Both the position numbers and the translations under genes were made by a program. The notes under the pieces were generated by a model. The model was not told the DNA's origin. It made no database searches and saw nothing but the letters and a program-made list of their open reading frames with translations. From a virus, in the IMG/VR virus record IMGVR_UViG_3300001201_000002, positions 1 through 64,000 of that record: a stretch of 64,000 bases of DNA, one strand, 5' to 3'. Of this stretch, positions 72 through 44,900 are shown piece by piece (position 1 is the first letter of the stretch; each line of letters begins with the position of its first letter).

Positions 72-147
72 TGGTCAGGGCGGTAGGACTCGAACCTACG
101 ATCTCCGCATTCCAAATGCGGCACTTTACCAGCTAAGCTACGCCCTG
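72..147 (-). tRNA. tRNA-Pro (anticodon UGG), CCA encoded
   Basis: Reverse complement folds as a full cloverleaf: acceptor CAGGGCG/CGCCCTG, D stem GCTT/AAGT, anticodon stem CCGCA/TGCGG with loop TTTGGAA, T arm GTAGG-TTCGAGT-CCTAC, discriminator A plus CCA. Confidence 0.9.
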
Positions 148-4705: not shown

Positions 4706-4946
4706 GTTCACTTTCGATGCTCGCCTCAATACCACCATTGAGGTGACTGTCGATGAACTGCTTGACGTCCGTCATGCTCACCCAAGAGCCAAAGAGATCT
4801 TTGAGCGCTTGGTTCTAACTGATCCTGTGACCGGGAAGACTTACGACTTGGACCTTGAAGATGGTCTGGTCGTACTCTCGATCGAAAATGACGACTCACC
4901 AACAGCAATCGAAAGGCTGAATGCAAATGACACTCAGACCCTGTAA
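4692..4946 (+). CDS. hypothetical protein (84 aa)
   Basis: Open frame with a 14-nt overlap on the previous ORF. Confidence 0.55.
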   Translation: MPNHKFTFDARLNTTIEVTVDELLDVRHAHPRAKEIFERLVLTDPVTGKTYDLDLEDGLVVLSIENDDSPTAIERLNANDTQTL

Positions 4947-4966
4947 CCACTGCGGAAGGACACACC

Positions 4967-5206
4967 ATGGGCCTATTGACGAAGACTGCGCAACGTTTGT
5001 TGCGGGGAAAATATCCGAGATTGCTCGCAACTTGGGTACTCCGAGAGGAAATAGAGGAGATGAACCAGACAGTGAAATACCTGTCGGAAGCGAACGACAC
5101 GATCGAGATAATCCTCGAAGCTAATGCTGGTCTAGCAGCCAGGCTCAACCAATCCCACGAATACACGAGATCGCTGATCTCCCAAATCCACGGAGAACTA
5201 CACTAA
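4967..5206 (+). CDS. hypothetical protein (79 aa)
   Basis: RBS GGAAGGA. TAATG coupling to the next ORF. Preferred over the overlapping frame 4921-5124. Confidence 0.5.
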   Translation: MGLLTKTAQRLLRGKYPRLLATWVLREEIEEMNQTVKYLSEANDTIEIILEANAGLAARLNQSHEYTRSLISQIHGELH

Positions 5207-5550
5207 TGGAAGACGCAACACTCAAAGCTGACATCATCCACGACATCGCAATGTATCGGAAACCACTGCCAACTCTGATCGAGATGGCTCTCGACATTGC
5301 GTATGACAACGACATGATCAACCGGGTTCGGCCGGAAAGCCTGTTCCTCACCAAGCTGGCCACATTGTTCAGTGAGCAGCCGATCGTCAGATTGTTATCT
5401 GTTGAGCACTTCTGCTTCAGCTTGTCCGAATCAGAACGCATGGTCATCACTTGTGGCGACCAACAAATGGCACGTGAGCTTGCTCGTGAATTCAGTGACG
5501 CTGGCCTGTTGACCGTATTCCTCAACGCTGTGTTCGAGATGGAACTATGA
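5206..5550 (+). CDS. hypothetical protein (114 aa)
   Basis: Coupled start and stop (TAATG, ATGA). Confidence 0.6.
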   Translation: MEDATLKADIIHDIAMYRKPLPTLIEMALDIAYDNDMINRVRPESLFLTKLATLFSEQPIVRLLSVEHFCFSLSESERMVITCGDQQMARELAREFSDAGLLTVFLNAVFEMEL

Positions 5551-5807
5551 CTGAGATCCCTCAACCAGTCATAGCTGTATCCTATGTCCTCAATTGGCTC
5601 ACCTTCGGGCCAAATGGGGCGACACTGTGCTCGCGGGCATACCACGCTGAACAAGAGGGCTACCGCTCAGGCAAGATCTTCCGTCCAATCTTGGACTGGA
5701 TCTTCAGCCCTCTCGAAACAACACACTGCAGAAAGGCCTACATCAAATGGAAACTGACAATCCTGAAAAACCAAAGATCATGCTCACAGACGGAGCCACA
5801 AGCATAG
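5547..5807 (+). CDS. hypothetical protein (86 aa)
   Basis: ATGA overlap with the previous ORF. Confidence 0.5.
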   Translation: MTEIPQPVIAVSYVLNWLTFGPNGATLCSRAYHAEQEGYRSGKIFRPILDWIFSPLETTHCRKAYIKWKLTILKNQRSCSQTEPQA

Positions 5808-6172
5808 CCAAACAGCTGCTGCACATGAACCTGTCCGATCTTGAAATCAAAATCCTTGCCGAAGACAGGAATTACAGTCCGTATATGCACGGCAGGCAAA
5901 TTGGCAAATCCATGCTTCAACAAAGACTCCACGAAGCAATGCTTGAAAGAATCACCGGAAACAAAATCGACTACGTCGTAATTGACGATGGTCCTTTCAA
6001 AATGGATCGGAGATACTTCCAGAAGTATTACATGCAGGATTGGTCAATTCCAGATTCTGACAACCGTGGTGACCATGATTGGAAGAGAACTGAGTTCAAA
6101 TCTGGACCTACAACTCCACCTTCTGAAGCCAAGCGTGCAAAGCTCAGAGTCAAACGAAAGAAGAAACGATGA
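5747..6172 (+). CDS. hypothetical protein (141 aa) with basic C-terminal tail
   Basis: Ends KRAKLRVKRKKKR. The start is uncertain (ATG 5747 or 5780). Confidence 0.55.
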   Translation: METDNPEKPKIMLTDGATSIAKQLLHMNLSDLEIKILAEDRNYSPYMHGRQIGKSMLQQRLHEAMLERITGNKIDYVVIDDGPFKMDRRYFQKYYMQDWSIPDSDNRGDHDWKRTEFKSGPTTPPSEAKRAKLRVKRKKKR

Positions 6173-6255
6173 CTATAGAGAAACTCTGGTTCGCTGCAGG
6201 AGTGATCGCTCTTTGTTATATCGTCCACTGGTTCGCATCCGGTGTGTCGATATGA
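6169..6255 (+). CDS. tiny membrane peptide (28 aa)
   Basis: ATGA overlaps at both ends. Sequence LWFAAGVIALCYIVHWFASGV. Confidence 0.3.
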   Translation: MTIEKLWFAAGVIALCYIVHWFASGVSI

Positions 6256-6392
6256 ACGTGGTCACGTACTACAGACGTGCCTGCCAAATGTATCCATATT
6301 TCAGCATGTGCCTCACATGTTGGACTGTGGGTCAACCTTGCCGGATCAGGAAGAAATCCCGTAAGTCCTTCAAATGTAAATGTAAAGGATAA
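6252..6392 (+). CDS. small Cys-rich basic protein (46 aa)
   Basis: ATGA coupled. Seven Cys residues, including CLTCW..C and KCKCKG. Confidence 0.35.
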   Translation: MNVVTYYRRACQMYPYFSMCLTCWTVGQPCRIRKKSRKSFKCKCKG

Positions 6393-6396
6393 ACCA

Positions 6397-6651
6397 ATGG
6401 CCCAGATTCTAACCGCAGGAATGACCGATGACGACCGTCGAGCCCAGCTCGAAATGATCACCGAAAATGATGTCAAGCACAACTTGTTCTCGCTAACTCA
6501 GGTATATTGTGCCAAAGATCTATGGCGTTGCAGTGCTGAGACTGCAGAGAAACGACTAAGAAATGGAAGGATGCCAAGTGCCCAAGCTATCTCTCGACAA
6601 CAAGAGCGTGATAATGGAATCGACAGATCGTGGAGTAAACGAGACCAGTGA
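6397..6651 (+). CDS. hypothetical protein (84 aa)
   Basis: ATG after AAAGGA. Confidence 0.5.
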   Translation: MAQILTAGMTDDDRRAQLEMITENDVKHNLFSLTQVYCAKDLWRCSAETAEKRLRNGRMPSAQAISRQQERDNGIDRSWSKRDQ

Positions 6652-12744: not shown

Positions 12745-13211
12745 CTCAACACCCACAAGTGAAGGCGTATAGGCGCCAACGTATGCTTGAGGTTCGGAAG
12801 ATTGTTGCAGAGACAGTTAAGAATGGTGGTCGCGTTGACCAGCTGTCTATTGCTGAAGCTGACGTCCCAAGATACCTCATTGCCCTGCAAGACATGCTGG
12901 ACGATGCAAACACCCGCCATGCTAAGGCGACAGATCACATTCAGAAGAATGCCAATGCTCTGGCTGATACTGAAGAGATGTACCTGTCGGCTATGGCTGA
13001 TTCAGGTAACCAGTTCCTTGCAATGCACGAAGAGATCCTCCGCGCTGAATCCCATGCTGACAACATGGAAGATGAAGCAGTTCGTCTCTCTGAAGGTTGG
13101 AATCGGGCAAATATGGACGTGAACTCTTTGACCATGGAAAACGAGAATTTACAGCGTCGTATAGAAGCACTGCTGTCGACTATCGCTATCCTGTCGGAGG
13201 GTTCCGTATGA
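12741..13211 (+). CDS. hypothetical coiled-coil protein (156 aa)
   Basis: ATGA overlaps at both ends. Heptad-like C-terminal half. Confidence 0.6.
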   Translation: MTQHPQVKAYRRQRMLEVRKIVAETVKNGGRVDQLSIAEADVPRYLIALQDMLDDANTRHAKATDHIQKNANALADTEEMYLSAMADSGNQFLAMHEEILRAESHADNMEDEAVRLSEGWNRANMDVNSLTMENENLQRRIEALLSTIAILSEGSV

Positions 13212-14689
13212 GCGAGTTGCGTGATAAATCACAAACTAAACCTCAGCTACTAATCATCGGTCATGGGCGCCATGGGAAGGACAGCTTTGCTGAACTTCTC
13301 TCGGTCATCTGCGGCCTTCAGTTCACATCCTCCTCACACTTCGTCGGTGAGCGCTGTATCTGGCCTGCTTGGGGCCAAGAGCGTTACGAAACGTTTGAGG
13401 ATTGCTTTGTGGACCGGGTTAACTACCGGAAAACATGGGCAGATTTGATCTCAGCATGGAACACTCCAGACAAGGCTCGCACTGCGCGGACTATGTTCGA
13501 AGAAGGCAACCACATGTATGTCGGCATGCGTCGTAAAGACGAGTTCGATGCTTGCATGGAAATTGACCTGTTTGACCATGTGATCTGGGTGGACGCGGGG
13601 AACCGCTTGCCTCTGGAACCAGCAGACTCAATGGAGATGGTCCGTGAGATGGCTGATCTCTATGTGGACAACAACGGTGCTGAAGGAGCTTTGCTCGATT
13701 ACGCCTTGGCCATACAGAAACACCTCCACGACGAGGGGTTCTATGTGGGATACCATGAGCCAATCATCGAAGAGAAGTCAGAACCTGTGTTCAAAACAGC
13801 TCGCCCAATCGAGAAACCTGAACTTGAAATAGCTGAAGAGCCAGTAGAGAAAGGTGATCGTCTAACTTGGTTCGATGCCCCTGAGGGCGCCACTCCAGTC
13901 CTTGACCACGGGTTTATCCAGGTGAAGGAAGTGATGGGCTCTGATAAGGACATCGCTGACTCTGCTCGTATGAGTTACGGACGCGGCACCAAGACGGTGA
14001 ACAATGACCAAGGTCTGATTAATTATCTTGTTCAGAATCACCATACATCACCACTTGAGATGGGTGAGATCAAGTTCCACATTCGTCTACCGATCTTCAC
14101 CATGCGTCAGTGGGTGCGTCACCGCACAGCTAACCTGAACGAGTATTCAGGACGTTATTCTGAGATGATCCGTCTGTTCTACATTCCTGAATTGGATAAA
14201 ATCATGTATCAGGGCTTGGTCAACAAGCAGATGTCTGGTGAACCATTACCAGAAGAACTAGCCAAGGGAGCTCAAGACGTGATGAGGATAGCTTCTATGG
14301 AAGCGTTCAATGCCTACGAACGTCTGCTCAACGAAATGGATGTATCACGGGAGACTGCCCGCATCGTTCTACCCCTTAACACCTACACAGAGGTGGTCTG
14401 GAAGATGGATGTTAGCAATCTACTAAAGTTCTTGTACTTGCGTGACGACCCACATTCTCAATGGGAGATTCAGGTCTATGCTCGCGAAGTTGCAAAAGCT
14501 GTGAAAGAATACTTCCCTGCAGTTTATGCTGCTTACGAGCGTTCTAAGACACGTGTTTCGTTAAACGAAGATCAGCTTTACGCTCTCATGACGTCAGACA
14601 CATCTCACCTTGGAAAAGGTGAAACTGCTGTGGTTGAAGGCATTGTGAAAAAAATGTTTAAGCGTGCAGCACTTGAAGACTTAGCCTAA
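13208..14689 (+). CDS. thyX: dNMP-kinase-like P-loop domain fused to FAD-dependent thymidylate synthase ThyX
   Basis: C-terminal half carries the ThyX signature RHRTANLNEYSGRYS. The N-terminal ~190 aa has LLIIGHGRHGKDSFAELL (cf. T4 gp1 GVKRSGKDT). Start is at ATGA with GGAGGG upstream. Confidence 0.85.
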   Translation: MSELRDKSQTKPQLLIIGHGRHGKDSFAELLSVICGLQFTSSSHFVGERCIWPAWGQERYETFEDCFVDRVNYRKTWADLISAWNTPDKARTARTMFEEGNHMYVGMRRKDEFDACMEIDLFDHVIWVDAGNRLPLEPADSMEMVREMADLYVDNNGAEGALLDYALAIQKHLHDEGFYVGYHEPIIEEKSEPVFKTARPIEKPELEIAEEPVEKGDRLTWFDAPEGATPVLDHGFIQVKEVMGSDKDIADSARMSYGRGTKTVNNDQGLINYLVQNHHTSPLEMGEIKFHIRLPIFTMRQWVRHRTANLNEYSGRYSEMIRLFYIPELDKIMYQGLVNKQMSGEPLPEELAKGAQDVMRIASMEAFNAYERLLNEMDVSRETARIVLPLNTYTEVVWKMDVSNLLKFLYLRDDPHSQWEIQVYAREVAKAVKEYFPAVYAAYERSKTRVSLNEDQLYALMTSDTSHLGKGETAVVEGIVKKMFKRAALEDLA

Positions 14690-14788: not shown

Positions 14789-15133
14789 ATGGCTCGAAAT
14801 ACCATCCCTACTATCCAGCTGAAGCGTGGGAACACCTTCCGTCTGGACATCTCAGCGACTGATCCAAATGCAGAAAATTTGCCAGTCGATCTCACTGACT
14901 ACGTCATCACCGCCCAATTGCGTTACGGCGACGAATTAGCGGCCGATCTTCAGGTTATCCTGACAGACGTTACCGCTGGTGACTTCTCCCTCTACCTCAA
15001 TGCTTCCTTGGTTCGAGAACTCAAGGTTCGCAAGTATGATGGAGACATCCTGTTTCACACACCGGATGGGACGTTTATCTCTTCCGAATCATTCATTCTC
15101 GATCTGGAAAAAGAGGTGACACGTTTTGCTTAA
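14789..15133 (+). CDS. hypothetical beta-rich protein (114 aa), coupled to tailspike
   Basis: Its own RBS (AAAGG). Overlaps the TTG start of the next gene by 8 nt. Confidence 0.6.
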   Translation: MARNTIPTIQLKRGNTFRLDISATDPNAENLPVDLTDYVITAQLRYGDELAADLQVILTDVTAGDFSLYLNASLVRELKVRKYDGDILFHTPDGTFISSESFILDLEKEVTRFA

Positions 15134-18110
15134 TCTCAACGCAAATTCCAATCCAATCATTTCATTGGCTGTATCACAGCCTGATACGGATGTAGCCTTC
15201 ACCCTCGGTGTAGGCATCAATTCATCGGCTCTCCACTACACTGACCTCGGCACAGGCGGAGCATCATCCCCTCTTCGCAAGGCGACCAACGGTGTCAACC
15301 TGAAAAACCTGGCTGTCCTTGAGACAGAAGCACACGCTCTTGGCGACCTGGCTATGGGTTTTGCAGAGAACATCACCGGTGGATCCGGCCTCGACGTCTA
15401 CTGGGTTTCCCACACTGTTCAGAACGGTGAGCTGCGTGATACGCGCCAGGCTAACGCTCAGGACAATTCAGACTTCGTCTACGGCTCATTCCGCTGGGCG
15501 GTTCAGATGTGCCGTGAGAACAATGGCGGCATCATCCTGTTCGAACCAAAAGGCTTCCACCAACTGTCGATCACGTGGCAAGAAGAGATCCCAAGCAACA
15601 CAACCATCTGGGCACCCAACAAGAACGTGGTCTTCGTGAAGCCTACCCAGGCTACAGCGATCAAACCAGCTGGTTCAAATATCATCATCCGCGGCATCTA
15701 TTTCAAAGACGTCAAAGACCTGCGTTCACACTCCTCTCGTGATGGTATCTATGTTGACCCGAACATCACCAACCTGATGTGGATCGACAGCTGTACCTTC
15801 GAGCAAATTGCTGACGGGTGTATCGACATCAACTCCCTGTCTGAGTTCACTTCCCGCTCTGACATCACGATCTCGAACTGTATCTTCCGTGGTCACGACA
15901 AAACCATGCTGATTGGCTCACTGGCCTGTTACCAGGACACTGAGGACGGTACGGTCTTGCCAACATACTGTGCAACACCTCTTGACGCTCCAGCCCTGCT
16001 CCACGTGACGCTCTACAACAACTACTTTGACCACACCTCTCAGCGTAACGCGAAGGTCCTTGGTCAGACGTTTGTTGACTTCTGCAACAACTTTGTTGGA
16101 TTGGCTCCATTCAGCCGGCCGGATGCGTCTGTAGCCTCAGTCTACGGAACTCACGCTCACATGGGCGCACGTGTCATCTCACGATACAATCACTATGCGT
16201 CATACGCTGGTGACGGCTATCTGGCTGTCGACGGTATTGCTGACGGTGTCTTCTCACCACGGGTGGGCAGTGACCTGGCTGACGCTTCACCGGGTGCCAT
16301 CGTTGAAGAAGGTAACCGTTACGACTCTGGTATCACCTCCACACCAAACCCATTGGAGGCAATCGTCGCTCCAACTTATACGACTCCTTTGGAAATCGTA
16401 CCGGTCAACTCTTTGGAAGAGGTTCTCTCTTCACGTGTTGGTGGATGGAACCACTTCCTACCTTACAACTATGTCGTTCAATCCGAGGCAGACAGCACAG
16501 GCATTTACCCAGATGGTGTGACTCTCCGCGGTGACCTGTACGACCGGACCCAGTTCTTCTCAGTCTTCCAGCCCCTGGATGTGATCCAGCCTATCGGCTC
16601 ACGTCTATCTCTGGAATTGGGAACCAATGTGGTAGCGAACTCAGTTGGTCAGATCGGTGTTGGTAACGACATCGACATCAACATTGCAGCCTACCATGCA
16701 AGTGCTATGGGCCAAGAAATCTACGTTGGAGAACTTGGAGACATGAGCTTCAATGCCGGTCGCGGTATATGGAACAACGTGTCCCAGTCTGTATCTGTTG
16801 GCTCATTCCCTACCATCAACGACGAGAAAGAAGTCCATTATTGGTACGAGGACATGTGGGAAGAGGGTGACCCAGTCCTCACCTATGATAAAGACGCGCC
16901 AGACATCCTCAACAAAGGATATGTCTTCCAGGTTGGTTCAGGTGGATCTACCGGGTCTCGCCGGAATGCTATCGGTGTCAAGAAAGACAGCGGTACAACA
17001 GAGATGCAGTCGATTGCTTACCCACGTGATGGGTCAAAAGACATCGTAGACGGTATTGTACGGCTAGAGGCTGTGTACCACACTCTTCGTACTGAGGGTT
17101 GGGATGATCCAGTCACTCCAGTCTATGAGGATGACATCGAAACCATTCTATACGGCCGTTACCGTGACGTTTATGTAGATGAAGTGTATGTTGAAACTGT
17201 CTATGATGACTTCATGACAGACGGTCTGTTTGTAATGATCACTCCTGCGTCATCAGCAGGTGTTATCACTATCAAGCATGACACTGAAGATGGTAACATC
17301 CGGCTGGCTGGTGAGCAAGACATCATCCTTGACGGATCTAAAGCACACATGTTGCAGTTGTTCTACCAAGCATCTCGTGGATGCTGGACTAATTTCATTG
17401 GAACTGGTACTTCAACGGCTCAATCTGGAACAACACCTCTTGGTGATGTGGACATCACAAGCGTATCGTCCTCTGCTGAATTGCAGAGCATTATTGATGA
17501 TCCAAACTATCACAACAATGACTACAACGACACATTGGTCAAGTGGGCTGCTCAAGAGCCTATGAATAACCTGGTTGCTGACTTTGGTCTCACAAGTCAC
17601 TACGATCTTAATGGTTACAACGCAATTAATGACCTTCAGGACAACCATAATTGGTCTATCACCGATGGAGGAGTAGACAATAACGCCTTAAGTGATACTT
17701 TGACTGTTAACCCAAACTTCGACACTGATATCAATAACTGGAATCCATACAATGGCGGGAATTCAAGTGCTGTATGGGATAACGGTAAGATTGAGGTAAC
17801 TTCAGGCAGCAACGGTCTTGGTTATGAGCAAGGTATCAGCTTGATTGCAGGTAGGGTCTATGTGCTTAGTGCTGAGGTACAAGCAACTGCCACTGGTCCA
17901 TCAATTCTTGGCCTTGTAAACTCGTCTCGGTCTGCGTTTATTAAAACCAGTGAGAACATTAATGTTAGTGATGGCGTGACTAACGTATCGTTTATCTATG
18001 AAAACCCAACCTCCACGAATTACTACCTGTACTTACGGGTCGGTTCTGGATCCGGTCGGGTTGGTGTCTACGACAATATTTATGTGAAGGAGCTTCAGTC
18101 CTTATCTTAA
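15126..18110 (+). CDS. tailspike-like polysaccharide lyase (pectate lyase PL1-type beta-helix plus C-terminal carbohydrate-binding domain)
   Basis: Blocks NIIIRGIYF, DGIYV, MWIDSCTF, DGCIDI, ITISNCIFRGHDKTMLIGS and VTLYNNYFDHTSQRNAKV..FCNNF follow the PL1 pectate lyase order. The C-terminus NPNFDTDINNWNPYNGG...YDNIYVKEL is CBM4/9-like. TTG start after GAGGTGA. Confidence 0.75.
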   Translation: MLNLNANSNPIISLAVSQPDTDVAFTLGVGINSSALHYTDLGTGGASSPLRKATNGVNLKNLAVLETEAHALGDLAMGFAENITGGSGLDVYWVSHTVQNGELRDTRQANAQDNSDFVYGSFRWAVQMCRENNGGIILFEPKGFHQLSITWQEEIPSNTTIWAPNKNVVFVKPTQATAIKPAGSNIIIRGIYFKDVKDLRSHSSRDGIYVDPNITNLMWIDSCTFEQIADGCIDINSLSEFTSRSDITISNCIFRGHDKTMLIGSLACYQDTEDGTVLPTYCATPLDAPALLHVTLYNNYFDHTSQRNAKVLGQTFVDFCNNFVGLAPFSRPDASVASVYGTHAHMGARVISRYNHYASYAGDGYLAVDGIADGVFSPRVGSDLADASPGAIVEEGNRYDSGITSTPNPLEAIVAPTYTTPLEIVPVNSLEEVLSSRVGGWNHFLPYNYVVQSEADSTGIYPDGVTLRGDLYDRTQFFSVFQPLDVIQPIGSRLSLELGTNVVANSVGQIGVGNDIDINIAAYHASAMGQEIYVGELGDMSFNAGRGIWNNVSQSVSVGSFPTINDEKEVHYWYEDMWEEGDPVLTYDKDAPDILNKGYVFQVGSGGSTGSRRNAIGVKKDSGTTEMQSIAYPRDGSKDIVDGIVRLEAVYHTLRTEGWDDPVTPVYEDDIETILYGRYRDVYVDEVYVETVYDDFMTDGLFVMITPASSAGVITIKHDTEDGNIRLAGEQDIILDGSKAHMLQLFYQASRGCWTNFIGTGTSTAQSGTTPLGDVDITSVSSSAELQSIIDDPNYHNNDYNDTLVKWAAQEPMNNLVADFGLTSHYDLNGYNAINDLQDNHNWSITDGGVDNNALSDTLTVNPNFDTDINNWNPYNGGNSSAVWDNGKIEVTSGSNGLGYEQGISLIAGRVYVLSAEVQATATGPSILGLVNSSRSAFIKTSENINVSDGVTNVSFIYENPTSTNYYLYLRVGSGSGRVGVYDNIYVKELQSLS

Positions 18111-22800: not shown

Positions 22801-24048
22801 ATGGCTAAAACGCGCTTCGTCTATCGCGAACAGGTCCTTCACCAGGGCGTCGTTCGTGAAGTAACATCCATCAAATTCCACAATGCAGATCCATGGGTCT
22901 CTTACGAGCTGACCGGTGTCGCTGATTTTGTGGGTCAAGAAGAACTCACAAAGATCCAACCACAGGAAGTCGACGGTGCTGCTTATGTCAAGGAAGCACT
23001 CATGTTTGCTGACTTGCTTGTCATCACAGGTGACTCAACCTCTGACAACAGCTACAGCGAATCAATCGAATACTTCACCCGCATGTACGGTAAAGTTGGG
23101 ATCGACATCTTTGACAACGCTGCATCTGGTCTGGAAGCTGCTGACTGGGTCGATAACACAGGCAACGCTACTGTGAACGAAGCCATTGCGGCTATTCCCG
23201 GCACCGGTGAAGGTACTGTCTGGCAGTTCTGCTTGGGCATCAACGACGTTGGTTCCGGTGGTGGTATGTTGACTCCTCAGCAACTGGTTGACATCTTCAC
23301 ACCTGGTATCGACGCTGTACTTGCAGCTAAGCCTGATGTGGTCCTGTACTTTGTGCAGCCAACTGCTCTTGCAGACTCAACACGGAATGATGCTCTGAAT
23401 GGGGCTTATGAAATCCTTGAAGATCTCTATGGTGCTTACGTGGTTCCGCTGTATCAGCCAATGCGTGACATCTATGACGCTGCGACTGACAACATCTTCT
23501 ACCAGGACAGCACACACCCGAACAACATCGGGACGATCCGTCAGATCAACATCATCCTGAACCACACTATCCCAGGTGCTTTCGTTTCAGATATGACTCT
23601 TGATCAAGAGCATTACACCGACATCACAGAAATCCTTGTCGATGAAATGGGTCCTTCGGACATCATCGCCGGACGTTACTGGAACTCTTCAGGCAGCCGC
23701 AGCAATAACGCATCCTGGGCCAGCTTTGATGCTCTGCCGGTGAAACTTGGACAGCGTGTTCGGGTCAACCACGGTGGTAACCGTTCGGATCTTCGACTGG
23801 TTTCATCTCCTTTTGATAACGATGGTGGCACGTTTGTCCGTACAATCACAGGCACTGGTGATCCTATTGTCTTTGACATCGCAGATGCAGGGGATGCTGT
23901 TGGTATCAACGTCGATTCGTCTGGGGCATATACAGCCCCTGGCGATGCTTATGCTCGTGTTTACGATCTCGTAAAAGAGAAAGCAGATTCCGATTTGACT
24001 CAAGACGAAATCAATATCGGTTTGACCATGCGTCTTATCGAGGCGTAA
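22801..24048 (+). CDS. SGNH/GDSL-family esterase with extra N- and C-terminal domains
   Basis: Block I VITGDSTSD, block III CLGINDV and block V QDSTHPN. Confidence 0.75.
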   Translation: MAKTRFVYREQVLHQGVVREVTSIKFHNADPWVSYELTGVADFVGQEELTKIQPQEVDGAAYVKEALMFADLLVITGDSTSDNSYSESIEYFTRMYGKVGIDIFDNAASGLEAADWVDNTGNATVNEAIAAIPGTGEGTVWQFCLGINDVGSGGGMLTPQQLVDIFTPGIDAVLAAKPDVVLYFVQPTALADSTRNDALNGAYEILEDLYGAYVVPLYQPMRDIYDAATDNIFYQDSTHPNNIGTIRQINIILNHTIPGAFVSDMTLDQEHYTDITEILVDEMGPSDIIAGRYWNSSGSRSNNASWASFDALPVKLGQRVRVNHGGNRSDLRLVSSPFDNDGGTFVRTITGTGDPIVFDIADAGDAVGINVDSSGAYTAPGDAYARVYDLVKEKADSDLTQDEINIGLTMRLIEA

Positions 24049-24066: not shown

Positions 24067-24100
24067 AAAGGGTCTGCAGGAAACTGTGGGCCCTTTCTTT
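24067..24100 (+). terminator. hairpin terminator/attenuator immediately upstream of the luxI-like gene
   Basis: 8-bp stem AAAGGGTC/GGGCCCTTT (one G:U) followed by CTTTA. The GGAG RBS and ATG of the next gene follow within 12 nt. Confidence 0.5.
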
Positions 24101-24111
24101 ATGGAGCAATC

Positions 24112-24621
24112 ATGTCTTACAAAATAGTGCCGTTCGGCTACCAAGGCCCACTTGTTGATGAAATGTTTTGGGCCCGTAAGCGCCTGTTCGTAGATCGTCT
24201 GAAGTGGGACCTCACTGTTACCGCAGAAGGCTACGAAGTTGACAATTATGACAACTACCGCTGTGAATACCTGATCCTCGGAGAGCCACACGAGGCCTCC
24301 ATGCGCCTGATGCGAATCTCGGATCCTTGCATGACAGTGGAAGCATTCCCTGGACTGTTCGATCGGTCCATGGCTAAAGATCCAGACAACGCAATTGAAG
24401 TCACACGCTTCTGCGTCGACCCTTGGACACCCGGTAAAGCTACTGAACTGTTCCAGGCTGGTCGTGACTGGCTCTACACCACCGAGTTCACGTCATTCGT
24501 GGCCGTCTACACTCCAGCGATGCTGCGGGTCTACAAGCGGGCCGGCTGGATGCCGAACACAATCAACTCAGCTGACAGCCCAGAGGGTAAAATACTCGTA
24601 GGACAGTGGAGTAAGCCATGA
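24112..24621 (+). CDS. luxI: LuxI-family acyl-homoserine-lactone (autoinducer) synthase homologue
   Basis: Family blocks appear in order: RKRLFVDRLKW (R..F.....W), GYEVDNYD (ExDxxD), MRLMRISDPCM (RL..P), IEVTRFCVD (E.[ST]RF.V) and MLRVYKRAGW. Confidence 0.85.
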   Translation: MSYKIVPFGYQGPLVDEMFWARKRLFVDRLKWDLTVTAEGYEVDNYDNYRCEYLILGEPHEASMRLMRISDPCMTVEAFPGLFDRSMAKDPDNAIEVTRFCVDPWTPGKATELFQAGRDWLYTTEFTSFVAVYTPAMLRVYKRAGWMPNTINSADSPEGKILVGQWSKP

Positions 24622-24992
24622 TCGAATTTTCCAAAATCAAAGAGACTTGGCAGTTTGATTTAAGTCAACGTGATGGTGGAATGATTGCTATCATGTGCAA
24701 CGAAGAGGATGATCCTAATTTCCACGCTGTCTACGAGTTACCTATTGATGTCATACAAGAACCAATGACATGGATGGGGATCTACCCTACCTACCTCATT
24801 GATGTTGACGTTGAGGCGTGTGCCGAAAAAGAAATTGATCTTGTGGATCTTCGTGAGTCCATCGAGATTTGGATAGAACAAAACGTCCGAATAGCTTACC
24901 GATATAATCCTTTGGATCGTCGACCAGACTACAATGAGGACACGTACATCCGACAGCGTCACGCTGTTGAATCTTTGGAGGATACGTTGTGA
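24618..24992 (+). CDS. hypothetical acidic protein (124 aa)
   Basis: ATGA overlap with the luxI-like gene. Confidence 0.6.
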   Translation: MIEFSKIKETWQFDLSQRDGGMIAIMCNEEDDPNFHAVYELPIDVIQEPMTWMGIYPTYLIDVDVEACAEKEIDLVDLRESIEIWIEQNVRIAYRYNPLDRRPDYNEDTYIRQRHAVESLEDTL

Positions 24993-25489
24993 TTTACACC
25001 GGTATTGGTTCACGTACCACGCCAGCACCGACTCTCAGAGCCATGATGGCACTCGGTCGGTTCATGGCCAAAGAAGGACACGTTCTACGCTCAGGAGCTG
25101 CCCCAGGCGCTGATACAGCGTTTGAGACGGGTGCTCGTGCAGAGAAAGGTGAGTGCGAGATCTACTTGCCTTACAAGCTTTTTCGTCAGCACCCATCCCT
25201 TCTCTTTGGCGATACAGTTGAAGATCGGAACTTCACTTCTAAGTTCCATCCGAACTGGGCCAACGTAGGATCCCGTGGCCGGGATTATCTGACTCGAAAC
25301 ATGTATCAGATCCTCGGCCGAGATCGACAAACACCAACCCGTTTCATGGTCTGCTGGACAGATGACGGAAAAGTCAAAGGCGGCACAGCCATTGGCATCC
25401 GTATTTGCCAGGAGTACAAAATCCCATTCTTCAATCTTGGTTCCATGAGCTTAGATGAAGCCAACGAGAAAATACAGGATCTGCTATGA
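24989..25489 (+). CDS. SLOG/DprA(Smf)-like Rossmann-fold protein
   Basis: YTGIGSRTTP ... VLRSGAAPGADTAFETGA matches the DprA/SLOG GxGSR...SGxAxGxD pattern. GTG start after GGAGG with a GTGA overlap. Confidence 0.6.
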   Translation: MIYTGIGSRTTPAPTLRAMMALGRFMAKEGHVLRSGAAPGADTAFETGARAEKGECEIYLPYKLFRQHPSLLFGDTVEDRNFTSKFHPNWANVGSRGRDYLTRNMYQILGRDRQTPTRFMVCWTDDGKVKGGTAIGIRICQEYKIPFFNLGSMSLDEANEKIQDLL

Positions 25490-26010
25490 TTAAAGAATTC
25501 ATTATCCGCAAAGCCAAGGCCTTAACACAAAGCCGGGCCCCAGACTTCGCTATCGGCCCAGCCGAAGACCCCTACATGCTTCGTTGGTGGTGGCTGCCGA
25601 GGAATCGCTTCTTCAACGTCTACGTCCATATCATGCGGCATGACGATGACGATCGGGCCCTGCATGACCACCCTTGGCCAAGCCTCAGCCTCTGCGCTCA
25701 AGGTATTCTATTGGAGCATTACAAAGACTCCGATGGTGATGCCCGCAAACGTCTGATCTACGAAGGTGATTGGATTTGGCGCCCAGCATCATTCGCTCAC
25801 CGTTTGGCCGTCTTCTCTGAAGACGAACTGCCAATGACAATCTTCATCACCGGTCCTCGGATCCGTGAGTGGGGCTTCCATTGCCCAAAGGGTTGGCGTC
25901 ATTGGATGGACTTCGTCTCTTCAGACGACAAAGGTGTCATCGGCCGTGGCTGCGGTGAGATGACCGGTCCAAGCAAAGCACCGAAGAGACGTCGAGGTTT
26001 CTTCAAGTAA
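25486..26010 (+). CDS. hypothetical protein with cupin-like HxH..E..H motif
   Basis: LHDHPWPSLSLCAQGILLEHY ... PASFAHRL. ATGA overlap. Basic tail KAPKRRRGFFK. Confidence 0.5.
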   Translation: MIKEFIIRKAKALTQSRAPDFAIGPAEDPYMLRWWWLPRNRFFNVYVHIMRHDDDDRALHDHPWPSLSLCAQGILLEHYKDSDGDARKRLIYEGDWIWRPASFAHRLAVFSEDELPMTIFITGPRIREWGFHCPKGWRHWMDFVSSDDKGVIGRGCGEMTGPSKAPKRRRGFFK

Positions 26011-28666: not shown

Positions 28667-29005
28667 ATGACCCACCACATTGACAAACTGGTTGGGGAAC
28701 GCATTAAATCAGTTCGACTGACGCAAGGCCTTTCCCAAGAGGAGCTGGCCTCTAAGATCGGCACCTCATTTCAACAACTACAGAAGTACGAATCGGGCAA
28801 GAACCGGATCAGTGCATCTCGTCTTTTCGATCTGGCTAAAGCCATGGGCATGCCTGTTAGCTACTTCTTTGCTCAGAATTCAAAGACAACCCCACTCCTG
28901 GACAAATCGACTGCCACTCTGGTAGGTCGGTACTCCGAACTTCCACAAGAACGACAGCAGCTCGTTTTCAAACTCATCAAGGAACTCTCCAATGGCAGCA
29001 CTTAA
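28667..29005 (+). CDS. XRE-family HTH transcriptional regulator
   Basis: VGERIKSVRLTQGLSQEELASKIGTSFQQLQKYESGKNRISASRLFDLAKAMG is a canonical HTH_3 domain. Confidence 0.85.
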   Translation: MTHHIDKLVGERIKSVRLTQGLSQEELASKIGTSFQQLQKYESGKNRISASRLFDLAKAMGMPVSYFFAQNSKTTPLLDKSTATLVGRYSELPQERQQLVFKLIKELSNGST

Positions 29006-30266: not shown

Positions 30267-30472
30267 AACTAACCCAGGCTCAAAAGAAGTGGCTGACAGC
30301 CCTAAACGAGACTGGTTTCGTGGAGTTCGGATGGTCAATGAGAAATGGTCAACGAAACCGTCCTTTGAGGACTCTTATCCGCTTAGGTCTTGCCGCTGAA
30401 ACCGAAACTCATCCAGATGGTGGGTATTCTTGGGGAGTTATCCCAACACCAGAAGGGAAAGCCTTGTTATGA
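30263..30472 (+). CDS. hypothetical protein (69 aa)
   Basis: ATGA overlaps at both ends. Confidence 0.55.
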   Translation: MKLTQAQKKWLTALNETGFVEFGWSMRNGQRNRPLRTLIRLGLAAETETHPDGGYSWGVIPTPEGKALL

Positions 30473-32454
30473 AATATGAAATCGTAGGCACCACAACACG
30501 AGACCCAGAGATTGCTATCCTGGTTCCCACCATCAAAGTATCGGAGATCAAGAAACACTATTACGACCCGTATCTCAAAGCTTTGGACCGGGATGTGATG
30601 GTCTGCGATCTCTACATCAATGCGGAATACTTCAAGGTCCTCACAAAGCGCAGCAAGACAGACGCTTCGATCGGTGACGTGATCGAGACAGTTATCCCTG
30701 GCTTGTATGCGACCTACGCGCCCCACTATTCACGTGTCTTCTACGATCCTGAGAAAACCAATTCGAAGATCCAGATTGCTATGGAGGCCACGACGAAGTG
30801 GATGGGTGGAGACACCAAGGTCCTTGGGTCTGACATCATCAAGTTCGCTGAATACCCGAACACCGATGCAGAGATTGAAGCCTGGCTTGAGAAGCTGCTC
30901 GACATGGATTGCGATCTGTCCTGTGACATTGAGGGCTTCTCCCTGAAGCACTACGATGCCGGGGTCGGCACGATTACATTCTGCTGGAACGACCATGAGG
31001 GTATTGCCTTTTCAGTCGACTATTTCCCATCTGACGGGCGCGATCCGCTTGTCCACGGGATGAACGTTACCAACCCACGGATCCGTGCAGCCTTGAAGAG
31101 TTTCTTCGAGCGTTTCGCTGAATCCGGCAACAAGATGATCTATCACAACATCTGTTACGACGTATATGTTCTGATTTATCAACTGTTTATGGATCACATC
31201 CTCGACCAAGAGGGTTTACTCTATGGACTCAAGATCTTGTTGGCAAACTGGGATTGTACCCAGTTGATCAGCTATCTGGCGACAAACTCCTGTGCCGGCA
31301 ACGAGCTCAGTCTCAAGGCCCAAGCTCAGGAATACGCTGGCAACTACGCCCAAGAGGACATCAAAGACATCTGTCTGATCCCTGAAGCCGATTTGCTAGA
31401 GTACAACCTGATCGACGGCCTGGCCACATGGTATGTGTTCAACAAAAACCACCCAATCATGGTGGCTGATGATCAAGAAGACATCTACAACCGGATCTTT
31501 AAGCCGGCTGTGGCCGACATCATTCAGATGCAACTGACCGGTATGCCAATCAACATGCCTAAAGTTGTGGCTTTGGATAAGAAGCTTCAGAAAGAATCTG
31601 ATCTGAATGTTCAGCGCATGCTGTCAACCCAGGTGGTTCAGGACTTCGTCTATGAACTCGAAGAACGGGCACTTGCCAAGAAGAACCTGAAGCTGAAGAC
31701 CAAACAGGTTGATCGGTCTGACCTCGGAAAGACCAAAGATCTCGTTGTCGAATTCAACCCCGGCAGCGCAAACCAACTCCAAGATCTGCTCTATTCAGAA
31801 GACTTCCTGGGACTCCCTGTCCTAGATTTGACCAAGAGCAAATTGCCGGCCACTGGCGCCGACACACTTGAGAAACTGAAGAATCACACCGCTGATCCTG
31901 ATGTGCTCAAGTTCTTGGACATCCTGATCGAGTTCAAAGCCTCAGCAATCATCCTATCTACATTCCTGCCGGCCTTCTTGAAGGCAGCACAGGGACCTGA
32001 CGGATGGTGGTATCTCTTCGGGAACTTCAGACTGGGCGGCACTGTGTCTTCACGACTGTCCTCAAACAACCCCAACCTACAGAACATTCCATCCTCTGGT
32101 TCAACCAAGGTCAAGCAACGTTTGGCCAAGATGATCAAGGAATGCTTCGAGCCACCTGATGGGTGGTTGTTCGTTGGACTCGACTTCGACTCTCTCGAAG
32201 ACAAGATCTCTGCGGTAACGACCCGCGATCCTATGAAGATCAAGGTCTACTCAGACGGCTATGATGGTCACTGCCTACGTGCGCTTGCCTACTTTGGTGA
32301 GCACATGCCTGACATTGAGCTGGCGCCCGACGACGCAAAGACTTTCTGCACAGAAGTCGACGGTGAAAAGATCTACTTCCACGCTGAGGAAGAGATCGAC
32401 TACCAAGGGAAGAAGATGACCGGACAGGAATTCTTCGACCTCATCAACTCGTAA
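30469..32454 (+). CDS. family-A DNA polymerase, part 1 (3'-5' exonuclease plus palm motif A)
   Basis: Exo I LSCDIEGFSL, Exo II YHNICYDVYVL, NPNLQNIP and motif A LFVGLDFDSLEDKI. Ends at TAA 32452-32454. Confidence 0.85.
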   Translation: MKYEIVGTTTRDPEIAILVPTIKVSEIKKHYYDPYLKALDRDVMVCDLYINAEYFKVLTKRSKTDASIGDVIETVIPGLYATYAPHYSRVFYDPEKTNSKIQIAMEATTKWMGGDTKVLGSDIIKFAEYPNTDAEIEAWLEKLLDMDCDLSCDIEGFSLKHYDAGVGTITFCWNDHEGIAFSVDYFPSDGRDPLVHGMNVTNPRIRAALKSFFERFAESGNKMIYHNICYDVYVLIYQLFMDHILDQEGLLYGLKILLANWDCTQLISYLATNSCAGNELSLKAQAQEYAGNYAQEDIKDICLIPEADLLEYNLIDGLATWYVFNKNHPIMVADDQEDIYNRIFKPAVADIIQMQLTGMPINMPKVVALDKKLQKESDLNVQRMLSTQVVQDFVYELEERALAKKNLKLKTKQVDRSDLGKTKDLVVEFNPGSANQLQDLLYSEDFLGLPVLDLTKSKLPATGADTLEKLKNHTADPDVLKFLDILIEFKASAIILSTFLPAFLKAAQGPDGWWYLFGNFRLGGTVSSRLSSNNPNLQNIPSSGSTKVKQRLAKMIKECFEPPDGWLFVGLDFDSLEDKISAVTTRDPMKIKVYSDGYDGHCLRALAYFGEHMPDIELAPDDAKTFCTEVDGEKIYFHAEEEIDYQGKKMTGQEFFDLINS

Positions 32455-32463
32455 GGAGACCGT

Positions 32464-33207
32464 ATGCTTAGTTTCACTGAGCCGGTCACAGGTGCCTCAG
32501 AGGTTTCGGCCTCTGAGCACAACGTGGCCAGGGTAAATTCCATCAAGAAAAAGTACAAGCATTGGCGCCAGGAATCGAAAGTTCCTACGTTCGCTCTGAC
32601 GTATGACGGGACCTACATCACTCTGATGAAGAACCTCGGCATGAGTGAGGAGCTGGCCAAGTCAATCGAAGAAAACTACCACAAGCTTTATGCCGTTTCG
32701 GATGCCTGGGTAGCGGATAAGATTGACCAAGCCTCCAGGGATGGGTACATCACCGCTGCATTCGGGCTGAGAGTGCGAACTCCGCTCATGAACCAAGTGG
32801 TAATGGGTACGAGCAAGACACCTCATGAGGCTGCCTCTGAGGGCCGCACAGCGGGTAACGCTCTAGGTCAGTCTTGGTGCATGCTCAACAACCGGGCAGC
32901 ATCTGAGTTCATGGCTCTGGTTCGGTCCGGTGAGCACCGACTGGACATCAAACCATGTGCTCACATCCACGATGCCCAATACTACTTGATCCGCGACAAC
33001 ATGGAGACGTTGATGTACGTCAACACCCATTTGTCTCAAGCGGTTCGCTGGCAAGATGATCCACTGATCGAGAATGAACACATCTCAATGAGTGGGCAGC
33101 TGGAAATCTTCCACCCAACCTGGTGTCACGGATTTGACATCCCTAACGAAACTACCGAAGAGGAAATCGGATGTCTGATCAAAGAACACCTGGAAAGCCT
33201 CAGCTAG
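32464..33207 (+). CDS. family-A DNA polymerase, part 2 (motifs B and C)
   Basis: Motif B RQESKVPTFALTYDG and motif C HIHDAQYY. ATG lies 9 nt after the part-1 stop in the same reading frame. The RBS AAGGAG overlaps that stop. Confidence 0.85.
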   Translation: MLSFTEPVTGASEVSASEHNVARVNSIKKKYKHWRQESKVPTFALTYDGTYITLMKNLGMSEELAKSIEENYHKLYAVSDAWVADKIDQASRDGYITAAFGLRVRTPLMNQVVMGTSKTPHEAASEGRTAGNALGQSWCMLNNRAASEFMALVRSGEHRLDIKPCAHIHDAQYYLIRDNMETLMYVNTHLSQAVRWQDDPLIENEHISMSGQLEIFHPTWCHGFDIPNETTEEEIGCLIKEHLESLS

Positions 33208-41956: not shown

Positions 41957-44900
41957 TCAATCCTTCGCCCAGTCGATCAAGTTAATCCATGGGTTGAGAT
42001 CTGGGGCGCCAAAGAGCATGTCTGAGCCTAATGAGTAGTCCAAACGACCATCCGCCGCCACAGAGAGCAAGTTGTCGTCTACGGGCGAGCCCACGTCCTC
42101 AGCCAGGCCACCAGTGATCAGAGCACCCACAGGATTGTTCTGCAAGGTCTTCAAACCAATCTTCATGATCCGGATCTTAAACGCAAGGAACCAAGATCCA
42201 CCCATAGACTCCAAGTAGGAACGTGTGCGGCCCGGCAATACGGAGAAGTTCACAAACTCTTCGTTCACCTCTTGCATCGCTTCATCGTGAGTCTTGCCTT
42301 GCTCAACCATGTGATCGTAATAGATGGCCTTCGCAATGAAATCACCATACTGGACCGACTTGTTCGCAGCCTTGTAGATAGGCGTGTCACGGCTCACCAG
42401 AGCGTATTTGGCGACTGTCTGTAGTTTTCCTGGCAAACGATCCAGTTGACCCTCGACGTAGTCCACAATACCTCCGCCAGTTAGCTCTTTGTCCATCTCA
42501 GTGATACCCTCGGAGATGTTCTTGTAAGCACCGGCTGCAACCAATGGAGCGATACTCATACGAGCGTTTTGATCCCAAACAGCCTGACGCTGCTTCTGCA
42601 GGATCTTCACTTGGTTCTTGTCTGTACCGGCCAGCTGGATACGTGCATTGAGTTCGATAATCTTGGTCACGTTCTCGTTGTACTGCTCGATCTCAACTAA
42701 CTTGGCGCGTGTGCCCTTAACGATGGATTTAACTCCGACACCACGAGTCGCCAACTGCAACATGTTAGCCTGAGCGTTCATGAATGGGACAACCAAGGAA
42801 CGAACAACAATCAAATCTTTCGCACTAGAGATGACGCCCTGAGTACCTTCTTCAATCTGGCTGAGTATAGGGATGGCCTTATCCCCTAGCAGTGCTTTAG
42901 CGGTGGCACGAACTGTTGTCTGTACTCCCTCTGGGAGGCGTGTCTTTCCGGACCACACATCAACGATTGAAGGTTCACGGTATCCTGTGGTCAAATTGAC
43001 CATATCCTTGCGGATCATGAACCCACCTTCTTCACCGAAGATCTCTTCGATCATCAAACGAGTCTCAGGAGAAATCACGTTCCAGCTGTCTGCGAAGATC
43101 GGATCATCTGACTTGCTCATATCAACGAACAGGCCATCAGTGCCTTCCTCACGGTTGTCGTAGATGTCTTTGACAGCCTGGATAAGCTCAGCGTTGTATT
43201 TACGTGCGAACTGCTCTTCAGCCTGGCGACCGGCCCATGCACCAACCATGAGAGCCAGGTTAGAGCGAGGAGCTGTGTATGCCTCTTTTAGATCAGGGTT
43301 CAGCGCTCGCTCATAACCAATGACACCATCAGCATCGAATACTGGGATCAGGACTTCTTTATCATCAGATACGTCACCCAACTGCTCAAGCTTAGATGTG
43401 ATGGTTTGAACCGATGCAGCATCGTTAATGTAGCCGGATGTGGTCCCATTCACAGACTGTCCCGTATCAGCATCAACACCACGGTATGAAGCCTGAACCG
43501 ATTGGATAACTCCCTGGGAATACATACCGCCCTGTTTTACGGTCGTTGCATAGTACCCGTAGGTGTTTGAAGAAAAATCCAGATCCGCGGATGCGTCAGC
43601 AACCCGTGTGAAACCTTTGCGAACCAGACTATCCATGTCTTTATCGTTACGGATGACAAGCTGGGCTCCACCAGAACCTTGATCAGGAATGAAGCCTTTG
43701 TATCCATTCATCTGGGCTTCTGTAGAGACAAGACCCTTTGTAATTTTGTCCTCTTCCTGACGGTTAAGGCCTTGCATGTAGACAACCAGAGCAGAAACAC
43801 CATCGGGATCTGCGTTGTAAAGGTCGACAATCTCCTGCTTAGCCTCGACCGACTGCCCCTGCAGAGCATACAGAGAGATGAGCTGGTCGATCTCAGCAGT
43901 CATGTTCGCATCGAACTCAGTTGTGATCTTGTTGATCGCGTATGCGTTCTTCAGCATCTGGTGACCGGCGCCATTCCCATTCATGAAGTTGGCCAGCTGT
44001 TGAGCCTTAGTCAGAACGAAGTCCGCACCGTCCTTGGAATAGTTGGCTACGATCGCTTTCTCAGCAGCTTCGATCTTCTTGGTTAGACGAGCCTCGCTCA
44101 TAACCAGACCAAGAGAAGCATTTGGGTTGTTCACATCGAACAAAGCCGCAAAGTCAGTCTTGCCTAGAACAGCGTGCATTGTTTTCCACTGATCTGCAGT
44201 TGGCTTGTTCTCGAAAGCACCTGCCAGAATGTTAGGCAGATCTTCACGGAAAGCCTGGCGCACAGAAGAAACCGCATAGTTGGTACGGTCGAGCAGAGCA
44301 ACAACGCTGGAGTTGATGGAGTCTGTGCCAACAACCTCTGTGACGAACTCACGGATTGGAACGAAGTGATCGAGAGCCTGTCCGAAGTGTGTGACATCTT
44401 TCAGACCTTTGGCAGCCAGCTTGCTACGATCCTCGGTCAAGAATGAAGAAGCTAGAGCAACAGAACCGGTCACCGCTTGTACCAGTGCGTTTGCATCTTC
44501 GTCTTTCATCTTGCGGTCAAACTCAGACGCCCGGCCGGCCAATAGATCCATGGCTCCGGAAGTTGCTTTGTTCGCACGGTTGATGTTGCTCATCAGGCCT
44601 TTCAGAAGGCTGTACTCTTTGTCACCTTCCTGGATGATCAGCTCTTCAGCCGCAGAACCGTCTGCAGTGTCGATTGAACCAAGGACCTTAGCCATCAGCT
44701 TAGATGTGGTCGCCTCAAGGAAACCATCCAGATTGCCGTCATAGATTGGAGACTCAGGTTCAGGCAACTTGTCCAGAGCAGCGCGGAAGCCGTTAGATGT
44801 CTGAGACAGAGCCAACAGAACAGCGACAGCGTCTGACACGTCTTCATCGTTGCTTGTGTTGCCGAACATGTCCATGACAGTCTGGAAGCGCTCAGCAGAG

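Follow-up and report, generated by a model that had tools for sequence, protein, structure and literature searches.

The luxI-like gene and its surroundings

A stretch of viral DNA of 64 kb (hereafter the window, meaning this DNA at its full length) was analysed, and the features discussed below are collected in Table 1. As judged by sequence comparison and structure prediction, the product of the open reading frame (ORF) named luxI here is a compact, receptor-less homologue of the LuxI-family acyl-homoserine-lactone (AHL) synthases.

Table 1 Features of the window, in order of position
Feature	Position	Strand	Description and evidence
tRNA-Pro	72..147	−	Anticodon TGG; left end of the window, strand opposite to that of the neighbouring ORFs
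ThyX ORF	13097..14689	+	530 aa as listed; Thy1 domain only at residues 279-474
Pectate-lyase-like ORF	15126..18110	+	994 aa; Pectate_lyase_4 and CBM_4_9 Pfam matches, no PHROG match
SGNH/GDSL-like hydrolase	22801..24048	+	415 aa; directly 5′ of luxI
Hairpin	24067..24096	+	13-bp stem, GAAA loop; RNA fold
Shine-Dalgarno GGAG	24103..24106	+	5 nt 5′ of the luxI ATG; read from the sequence
luxI-like CDS	24112..24621	+	ATG start, 169 aa and stop; ORF listing, PF00765, alignment, AlphaFold, fold search
ORF of unknown function	24618..24992	+	124 aa; first ORF downstream of luxI
DprA-like/SLOG ORF	24989..25489	+	PHROG and Pfam matches
Cupin ORF	25486..26010	+	Phrog ‘cysteine dioxygenase’; PHROG and Pfam matches
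XRE-type HTH	28667..29005		Only HTH of this type found
Family A DNA polymerase, first part	30430..32454	+	Pfam positions 24-199
Family A DNA polymerase, second part	32464..33207	+	Pfam positions 200-303
Virion RNA polymerase	41957..52171	−	3404 aa; phrog_2206 matched over its full length, 2231.9 bits

The hairpin lies between the stop codon of the SGNH-hydrolase gene and the ribosome-binding site of luxI. Its folding energy was −22.1 kcal/mol, with a z-score against shuffled sequences of only −1.85, and it was not called in a consensus terminator scan because its T-tail is weak. The hairpin could be a putative weak terminator, an attenuator or an RNA-stability element. Both the promoter and the terminator scans gave fewer matches than shuffled sequence, and these scans are uninformative for N4-type transcription.

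Downstream of luxI, three ORFs follow on the same strand (24618..26010), the start of each overlapping the previous stop by 4 nt, and they appear to form with luxI a single compact unit that precedes the ribonucleotide reductase (RNR) gene. The base composition of luxI (GC 0.533, GC3 0.60) is within the range of the other phage genes, and several, but not all, roseobacterial luxI genes have a GC3 of 0.70-0.84. The composition of the window gene is thus phage-adapted. Comparison with Ruegeria phage V13 showed synteny over the DprA-like gene, RNR, helicase and DNA polymerase. To the left of this syntenic block V13 has rIIA/rIIB, whereas the window has a ligase-like gene, a 229-aa ORF, the SGNH hydrolase and luxI. 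Within the rightward replication block, luxI thus belongs to a variable island.

The SGNH/GDSL-like hydrolase encoded directly upstream of luxI has only seven homologues among 5.8 billion proteins, and no relative was found for it in the PDB. One of the homologues sits on a contig (L038, JGI Ga0115547_1000393) that looks like an unrelated large phage and at about 4878..6530 encodes consecutively IF3 (a translation initiation factor), ribosomal protein S21, HSP20 and ClpS. The hydrolase was considered as an AHL-degrading partner of luxI and rejected as unsupported, its few homologues all being without luxI. It is likewise absent from the other phage luxI loci examined.

The window comes from an N4-like phage

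The preliminary description of this DNA had assigned it to an N4-like phage. This assignment is borne out by the full-length virion RNA polymerase, an N4-type RNAP II subunit (phrog_2051), a portal protein (phrog_1216) and the major capsid protein, alongside which other structural proteins are encoded in the window. Rhodovirinae N4-like phages of Ruegeria, Roseobacter, Sulfitobacter and Dinoroseobacter have capsid proteins that share 61-64% identity with the one encoded here. The window is accordingly that of an N4-like phage (Schitoviridae, Rhodovirinae-like), probably of a Rhodobacteraceae host. All genomic relatives of the LuxI protein belong to Rhodobacteraceae or other Alphaproteobacteria, and these sequence relationships are consistent with a host of the Roseobacter group.

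A megablast search with 5 kb around luxI gave no match among 50,697 phage records; with no near-identical DNA in this collection, the phage is therefore undescribed. No integrase was found among the window ORFs scanned. An identical LuxI protein is on record from a contig of 74,047 bp, a length on the scale of complete N4-like roseophage genomes, and about 10 kb of that contig is not part of the window. As the end of the window cuts the portal gene, the missing 10 kb or so should hold the packaging and tail module. A 3.5-kb piece identical to this DNA is present in SRR2835693.

Several other features of the genome were noted. The pectate-lyase-like ORF is located in the rightward early/middle block and not with the virion genes, which for a protein that degrades polysaccharides is odd in an N4-like genome. 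Two ORFs, separated by a stop, a GGAG and a new ATG, share the family A DNA polymerase, for which Ruegeria phage V13 has one undivided gene. The ThyX ORF has either an unexplained 278-aa N-terminal extension or an overcalled TTG start. A tRNA gene is found at the left end (Table 1).

The luxI product belongs to the LuxI family

The preliminary description, made from the sequence alone, had read five LuxI blocks in the 169-aa ORF. All five were found, namely RKRLFVDRLKW at residues 22-32, GYEVDNYD at 40-47, MRLMRISDPCM at 64-74, IEVTRFCVD at 95-103 and KRAGW at 142-146. The profile search that had been proposed as a check gave a clear match, the protein scoring 79.4 bits against PF00765 (Autoind_synth), three times the gathering score of 24, with E = 3.2e-22 and an alignment to positions 10-162 of the 183-position profile. 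When 1.84 billion representatives were searched exhaustively with phmmer, 554 matches were obtained at E ≤ 1e-3, 91 of them at E ≤ 1e-10, and among PDB sequences phmmer matched EsaI (4.6e-7), LasI, TofI, BjaI and RpaI. Annotated AHL synthases from alphaproteobacterial plasmids are 35-37% identical to the window protein. The scores against the NCBIfam TraI-type equivalogs NF010408 and NF052393 were 56.8 and 53.2 bits, far below the cut-offs of 292 and 250. The protein is therefore a member of the LuxI family and not an orthologue of a named synthase, and the possibility that it is a TraI orthologue was ruled out on these scores.

Conservation was measured in an alignment of 140 homologues. The result showed that R22, F26, W32, E42, D44, D47, R65, E96, T98 and R99 are all kept, at columns that are 84-100% conserved (n = 140). 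These residues align one-to-one with EsaI R24, F28, W34, E43, D45, D48, R68, E97, S99 and R100, which we take, from the literature on EsaI, LasI, TofI and BjaI, to be the residues of the S-adenosylmethionine (SAM) site and of catalysis. At every column conserved at 70% or more in the same alignment (n = 140) the window protein carries the majority residue, with the single exception of a Pro to Arg change at position 68. R139, K142 and R143, all basic, show the conservation seen in normal synthases. The position of EsaI Thr140 is occupied by A131, which carries little information because Gly or Ala is the norm there in alphaproteobacterial homologues.

The predicted fold is that of an AHL synthase without its peripheral parts

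The AlphaFold model of the window protein (pLDDT 96.6, pTM 0.90) contains a complete GNAT core, b1-a1-b2-b3-b4-a3-b5-a4-b6-b7. When this predicted model was used as a query in a Foldseek search of the PDB, ranks 1-12 were all AHL synthases (TofI, MesI, RpaI, BjaI, EsaI and LasI), with TMq values of 0.69-0.85 and E-values from 2e-11 to 1e-9. Generic GNATs and FeeM ranked lower, at a TMq of about 0.6 (0.63 for FeeM). A superposition on EsaI, LasI and TofI had been suggested beforehand, and the predicted fold indeed best matches synthases of this type, well ahead of the GNATs. Profile and fold, the two checks that could have told against the identification, both came out in its favour. The identity to the solved AHL synthases in the structural alignments is about 18-22%. 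As to the acyl donor, the TM-scores slightly favour the CoA-type enzymes RpaI, MesI and BjaI, and the sequence E-values favour the ACP-type enzymes EsaI and LasI.

These data bear on the alternative that the protein has kept the LuxI fold but has diverged into an acyltransferase that has ceased to make AHLs, such as a FeeM-type N-acyl amino-acid synthase or an enzyme acylating some other amine. Such a reading would fit the matches to the FeeM profile PF21926 (17.9 bits, gathering threshold 27) and to Acetyltransf_5 (19.3 bits, threshold 22.4), both of which are below threshold, the appearance of FeeM and GNATs further down the fold search, and a truncated protein that scores far below the NCBIfam equivalog cut-offs for AHL synthases. 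However, the PF00765 score is four times the FeeM score, and the TM-scores are 0.79-0.85 for AHL synthases against 0.63 for FeeM. The N-terminal SAM-binding block distinguishes LuxI enzymes from N-acyl amino-acid synthases, and in the window protein this block (R22, F26, W32, E42, D44, D47 and R65) is intact. We consider a diverged acyltransferase improbable, and an AHL synthase is the reading favoured by profile, residues and predicted fold alike.

The window protein is 25-40 aa shorter than the characterised enzymes, the usual length being about 190-230 aa. It had been described as shortened at the C-terminus, and this is correct: the homologues extend further by a median of 30 aa (quartiles 21-37; n = 140). 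Apart from the tail, the missing parts comprise about 7 aa following strand 1, 3 aa of the b2-b3 hairpin and a portion of helix a3. The tail was examined in a model of a Litoreibacter LuxI of 199 aa, where it consists of two short helices that follow the last core strand and lie outside the core, and it is the least confident region of that model (pLDDT 73-88). As far as the models show, the parts absent from the window protein are peripheral. The C-terminal part may help to close the acyl pocket in some solved synthases.

The solved synthases, EsaI (1K4J/1KZF), LasI (1RO5), TofI (3P2F/3P2H), BjaI (5W8x), RpaI (6WN0) and MesI (6WNS), belong to the same Pfam family and share with the window protein the conserved SAM-site residues and the GNAT-like fold, which for the window protein is predicted. 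They differ from it in being cellular and 193-230 aa long, whereas the window protein is virus-encoded and lacks the C-terminal tail, its helix a3 and N-terminal segment also being shorter.

The window encodes no LuxR receptor

A canonical LuxI/LuxR circuit encodes a cognate receptor (Autoind_bind plus GerE) together with the synthase. Cellular relatives of the window gene (L009-L023) typically have an ORF of about 240 aa immediately upstream of luxI, and all three of those tested are LuxR by Pfam. In contrast, a Pfam scan of 36 window ORFs gave no match to PF03472 (Autoind_bind) or PF00196 (GerE). A LuxR HMM was also built from 11 ORFs located immediately 5′ of cellular luxI relatives, three of which were Pfam-confirmed. 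This HMM recovered control LuxRs at E ≤ 1e-97 and gave no match in the window, translated in six frames, or in the loci of the phage-borne relatives. The 64-kb window, beyond which lies about 10 kb of the source contig, thus lacks a LuxR receptor. The sole XRE-type HTH is located 4 kb downstream of luxI, beyond the RNR gene, at the position occupied in V13 by the small hypothetical gene gp43.

Close relatives are phage-borne and under purifying selection

The nearest proteins (P0002/L002, L006, P0003, P0006/L008/L004 and L029) are 48-58% identical to the window protein and 178-181 aa long, except that the L006 copy is cut at a contig end and the L004 copy reads on to 287 aa. In the four loci whose context is visible (L002, L004, L006 and L008), the gene is in viral or prophage DNA, and luxR is absent. 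None of these relatives is N4-like. The viral contigs L002 and L006 share a backbone with a capsid gene, a T4 endoV-like gene, an AAA_25 helicase and ThyA, and L004 and L008 (and L029) represent a temperate phage in which luxI lies between an endolysin and an integrase or methylase gene.

The dN/dS ratio was 0.08 between L002 and L006 and 0.22-0.28 among the prophage copies, indicating from these sequence comparisons that the closest relatives are under purifying selection. In the tree, the window protein forms a clade with P0002 and P0003 at 93% bootstrap, and a six-member group is weak (58%). A monophyletic lineage of short phage LuxI proteins, suggested by neighbour joining (10 members of 164-190 aa), was not supported, its bootstrap being 28%, and 3% when the protein of Dinoroseobacter phage R26L was included.

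The 3′ ends of the prophage copies were also inspected. In L004 (10001..10864; prophage of GCA_027059285.1) the 287-aa luxI frame overlaps a convergent integrase gene, and in L008 and L029 luxI stops within 5-7 codons of the conserved V(G/A)Q(W/S) strand. It is exactly at this point that the sequences diverge, as if there were a junction at the 3′ end of luxI.

The selection and tree data can be set against the view that the window gene is an inactive, C-terminally truncated remnant of a host luxI on its way to being lost. The protein is indeed shorter than the cellular enzymes, and the gene is part of a variable island, occupied in V13 by rIIA/rIIB. It is moreover the sole copy among some 480 N4-like phages, no luxI-like gene having been found in the approximately 480 phages of the collection that share the capsid protein. 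However, every family-conserved residue of the catalytic and SAM sites is retained, the model is compact and very confident, and the composition is fully phage-adapted. The nearest relatives, no more than 54-57% identical, are phage-borne, short and under purifying selection, with the clade of P0002 and P0003 well supported, and the gene has a good ribosome-binding site and is translationally coupled to conserved downstream genes. A decaying remnant is therefore very unlikely in our judgement, and a gene maintained as a synthase agrees better with these observations.

Known phage LuxI genes

The preliminary description knew of no characterised signal synthase in a strictly lytic N4-type phage. 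That part stands for the collections and literature searched, in which no characterised synthase of an N4-type phage was found. The wider novelty was overstated, because phage LuxI genes are already known: prophage LuxI enzymes have been shown to make homoserine lactones (HSLs) (PMC13345283), and the genes of phages R26L and RDJL Phi 2 have been named as AHL synthases. The LuxI enzymes of Phaeobacter inhibens prophages make C12-type HSLs, which activate both prophage lysogeny programmes and host quorum sensing, and modules of this kind occur in 53 of 93 related Roseobacter prophages (Bunsick et al., 2026 preprint, Bassler laboratory; PMC13345283). That work establishes that luxI genes of phages can encode working enzymes with effects on host as well as phage receptors. 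The modules of P. inhibens T5 and other Roseobacter prophages resemble the window in that a phage of the Roseobacter group encodes LuxI. They are four-gene switches (hth / xre-luxR-luxI, with hth divergent) that control lysis versus lysogeny in temperate phages (PMC13345283), whereas the window phage is N4-like; it lacks luxR and an operon of this kind, and the ORFs scanned include no integrase.

Short LuxI-like genes were also identified by tblastn and the fold search in three cultured phages, R26L, RcCWillis and RDJL Phi 2. The protein of Dinoroseobacter phage vB_DshS_R26L, which has a latent period of 3.5 h in D. shibae, is 163 aa long; its gene has been discussed as a hypothetical AHL synthase, and the phage is described as lytic (PMC11981692). 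That of Roseobacter phage RDJL Phi 2 (184 aa) is named N-acyl-L-homoserine lactone synthetase in UniProt, which names both this and the R26L protein as AHL synthases; it is matched to the window protein by predicted fold only (TMq 0.77, 21% identity). Gp81 of Rhodobacter phage RcCWillis (L039 3920..4429; OP009268.1) is, like the window protein, 169 aa long, is annotated only as ‘hypothetical protein’ and adjoins a DNA ligase gene. The R26L and RcCWillis copies keep all invariant LuxI residues, and no luxR was found in the stretches of these two phages that were examined. The three genes thus share with the window gene a short product (163-184 aa) and a Rhodobacterales phage as carrier. They differ in sequence (21-37% identity to the window protein) and in belonging to phages of siphovirus or Casjensviridae type, not N4-like ones.

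A coral-associated viral genome has been reported to carry raiI with a luxR-family gene (PMC11309003). Two human faecal records named ‘Bacteriophage sp.’ (MT835580.1 and MT837523.1) gave weak LuxI-like tblastn matches of 28-38% identity, one of which covers the N-terminal half only; they hint at LuxI-like genes in contigs of gut phages as well. A survey of auxiliary genes in N4-like viruses makes no mention of quorum sensing. Within the collections searched, the window gene is the first LuxI in an N4-like phage.

Proposed function of the phage LuxI

Taken together, sequence and structure prediction make it likely that luxI encodes a functional minimal AHL synthase, carried as an accessory gene by an N4-like Rhodobacteraceae phage, which would be expressed during infection and produce a one-way signal. 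N4 places its middle genes in a rightward-transcribed DNA-metabolism block. The window luxI appears to lie in such a block, as the first gene of what would be a translationally coupled four-gene unit, and by analogy it may be expressed as a middle-class gene inside the infected cell during replication. The enzyme would then take host SAM and an acyl carrier, most likely acyl-ACP, and, as its conserved active site suggests, would yield an AHL and methylthioadenosine (MTA). The diffusible AHL would be released and act in one direction. As far as the window shows, the phage lacks a LuxR-type receptor, and the signal would therefore not serve its own decision making. The target of the AHL could be the host population, through its LuxR receptors, or resident Roseobacter prophages, through switches under LuxR control; both are plausible because prophage HSLs act on both (PMC13345283). 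Points against activity are the shortened protein, the NCBIfam scores below cut-off and the Pro to Arg change at position 68, and it is not readily apparent what a virulent phage would gain by emitting a density signal.

An active enzyme might instead serve the consumption of SAM, or lactonisation, rather than signalling, the conversion of SAM to MTA lowering the SAM level of the infected cell and blunting SAM-dependent defences of the host in the manner of the T3 SAM lyase, which has a different fold. LuxI chemistry does release MTA from SAM. The fully conserved SAM-binding residues, the position of luxI among genes of nucleotide and DNA metabolism rather than regulators, and the failure to find a receptor in the window are all compatible with this idea. 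However, LuxI enzymes turn over slowly and use one acyl donor per SAM, and with slow turnover and a need for acyl donor a bulk effect on the SAM pool is unlikely. Furthermore, the half of the protein on the acyl side (b4-a3-b5-a4) is conserved together with R139, K142 and R143, all of which would be needless for SAM cleavage alone. SAM depletion as the purpose of the gene is thus highly improbable, and signal synthesis is the function that we propose.

A broader proposal, which we hold only tentatively, is that virulent Rhodobacterales phages, in this case an N4-like podovirus, broadcast AHL by means of minimal, receptor-less LuxI proteins, and that the signal could keep neighbouring Roseobacter prophages lysogenic through their LuxR-controlled switches or shift the state of hosts not yet infected. 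If this were true, the host functions shifted would be quorum-regulated expression of receptors, defence, motility or gene transfer agents. It would amount to chemical manipulation of bacteria by a phage that has no lysis-lysogeny decision of its own.

To our knowledge, all phage quorum-sensing parts that have been studied experimentally (VqmA-Phi, phage LuxR receptors, arbitrium and the Phaeobacter LuxI/LuxR modules) come from temperate phages, and all of them feed the lysis-lysogeny decision. A receptor-less synthase in an N4-type phage, which apparently faces no such choice, would have to exert its effect through altered behaviour of other cells or phages. The window gene and those of R26L, RDJL Phi 2 and RcCWillis provide a small and easily expressed test case for one-way signalling of this kind, which would add a virus-derived source of AHL in settings rich in Roseobacter, such as algal blooms and biofilms.
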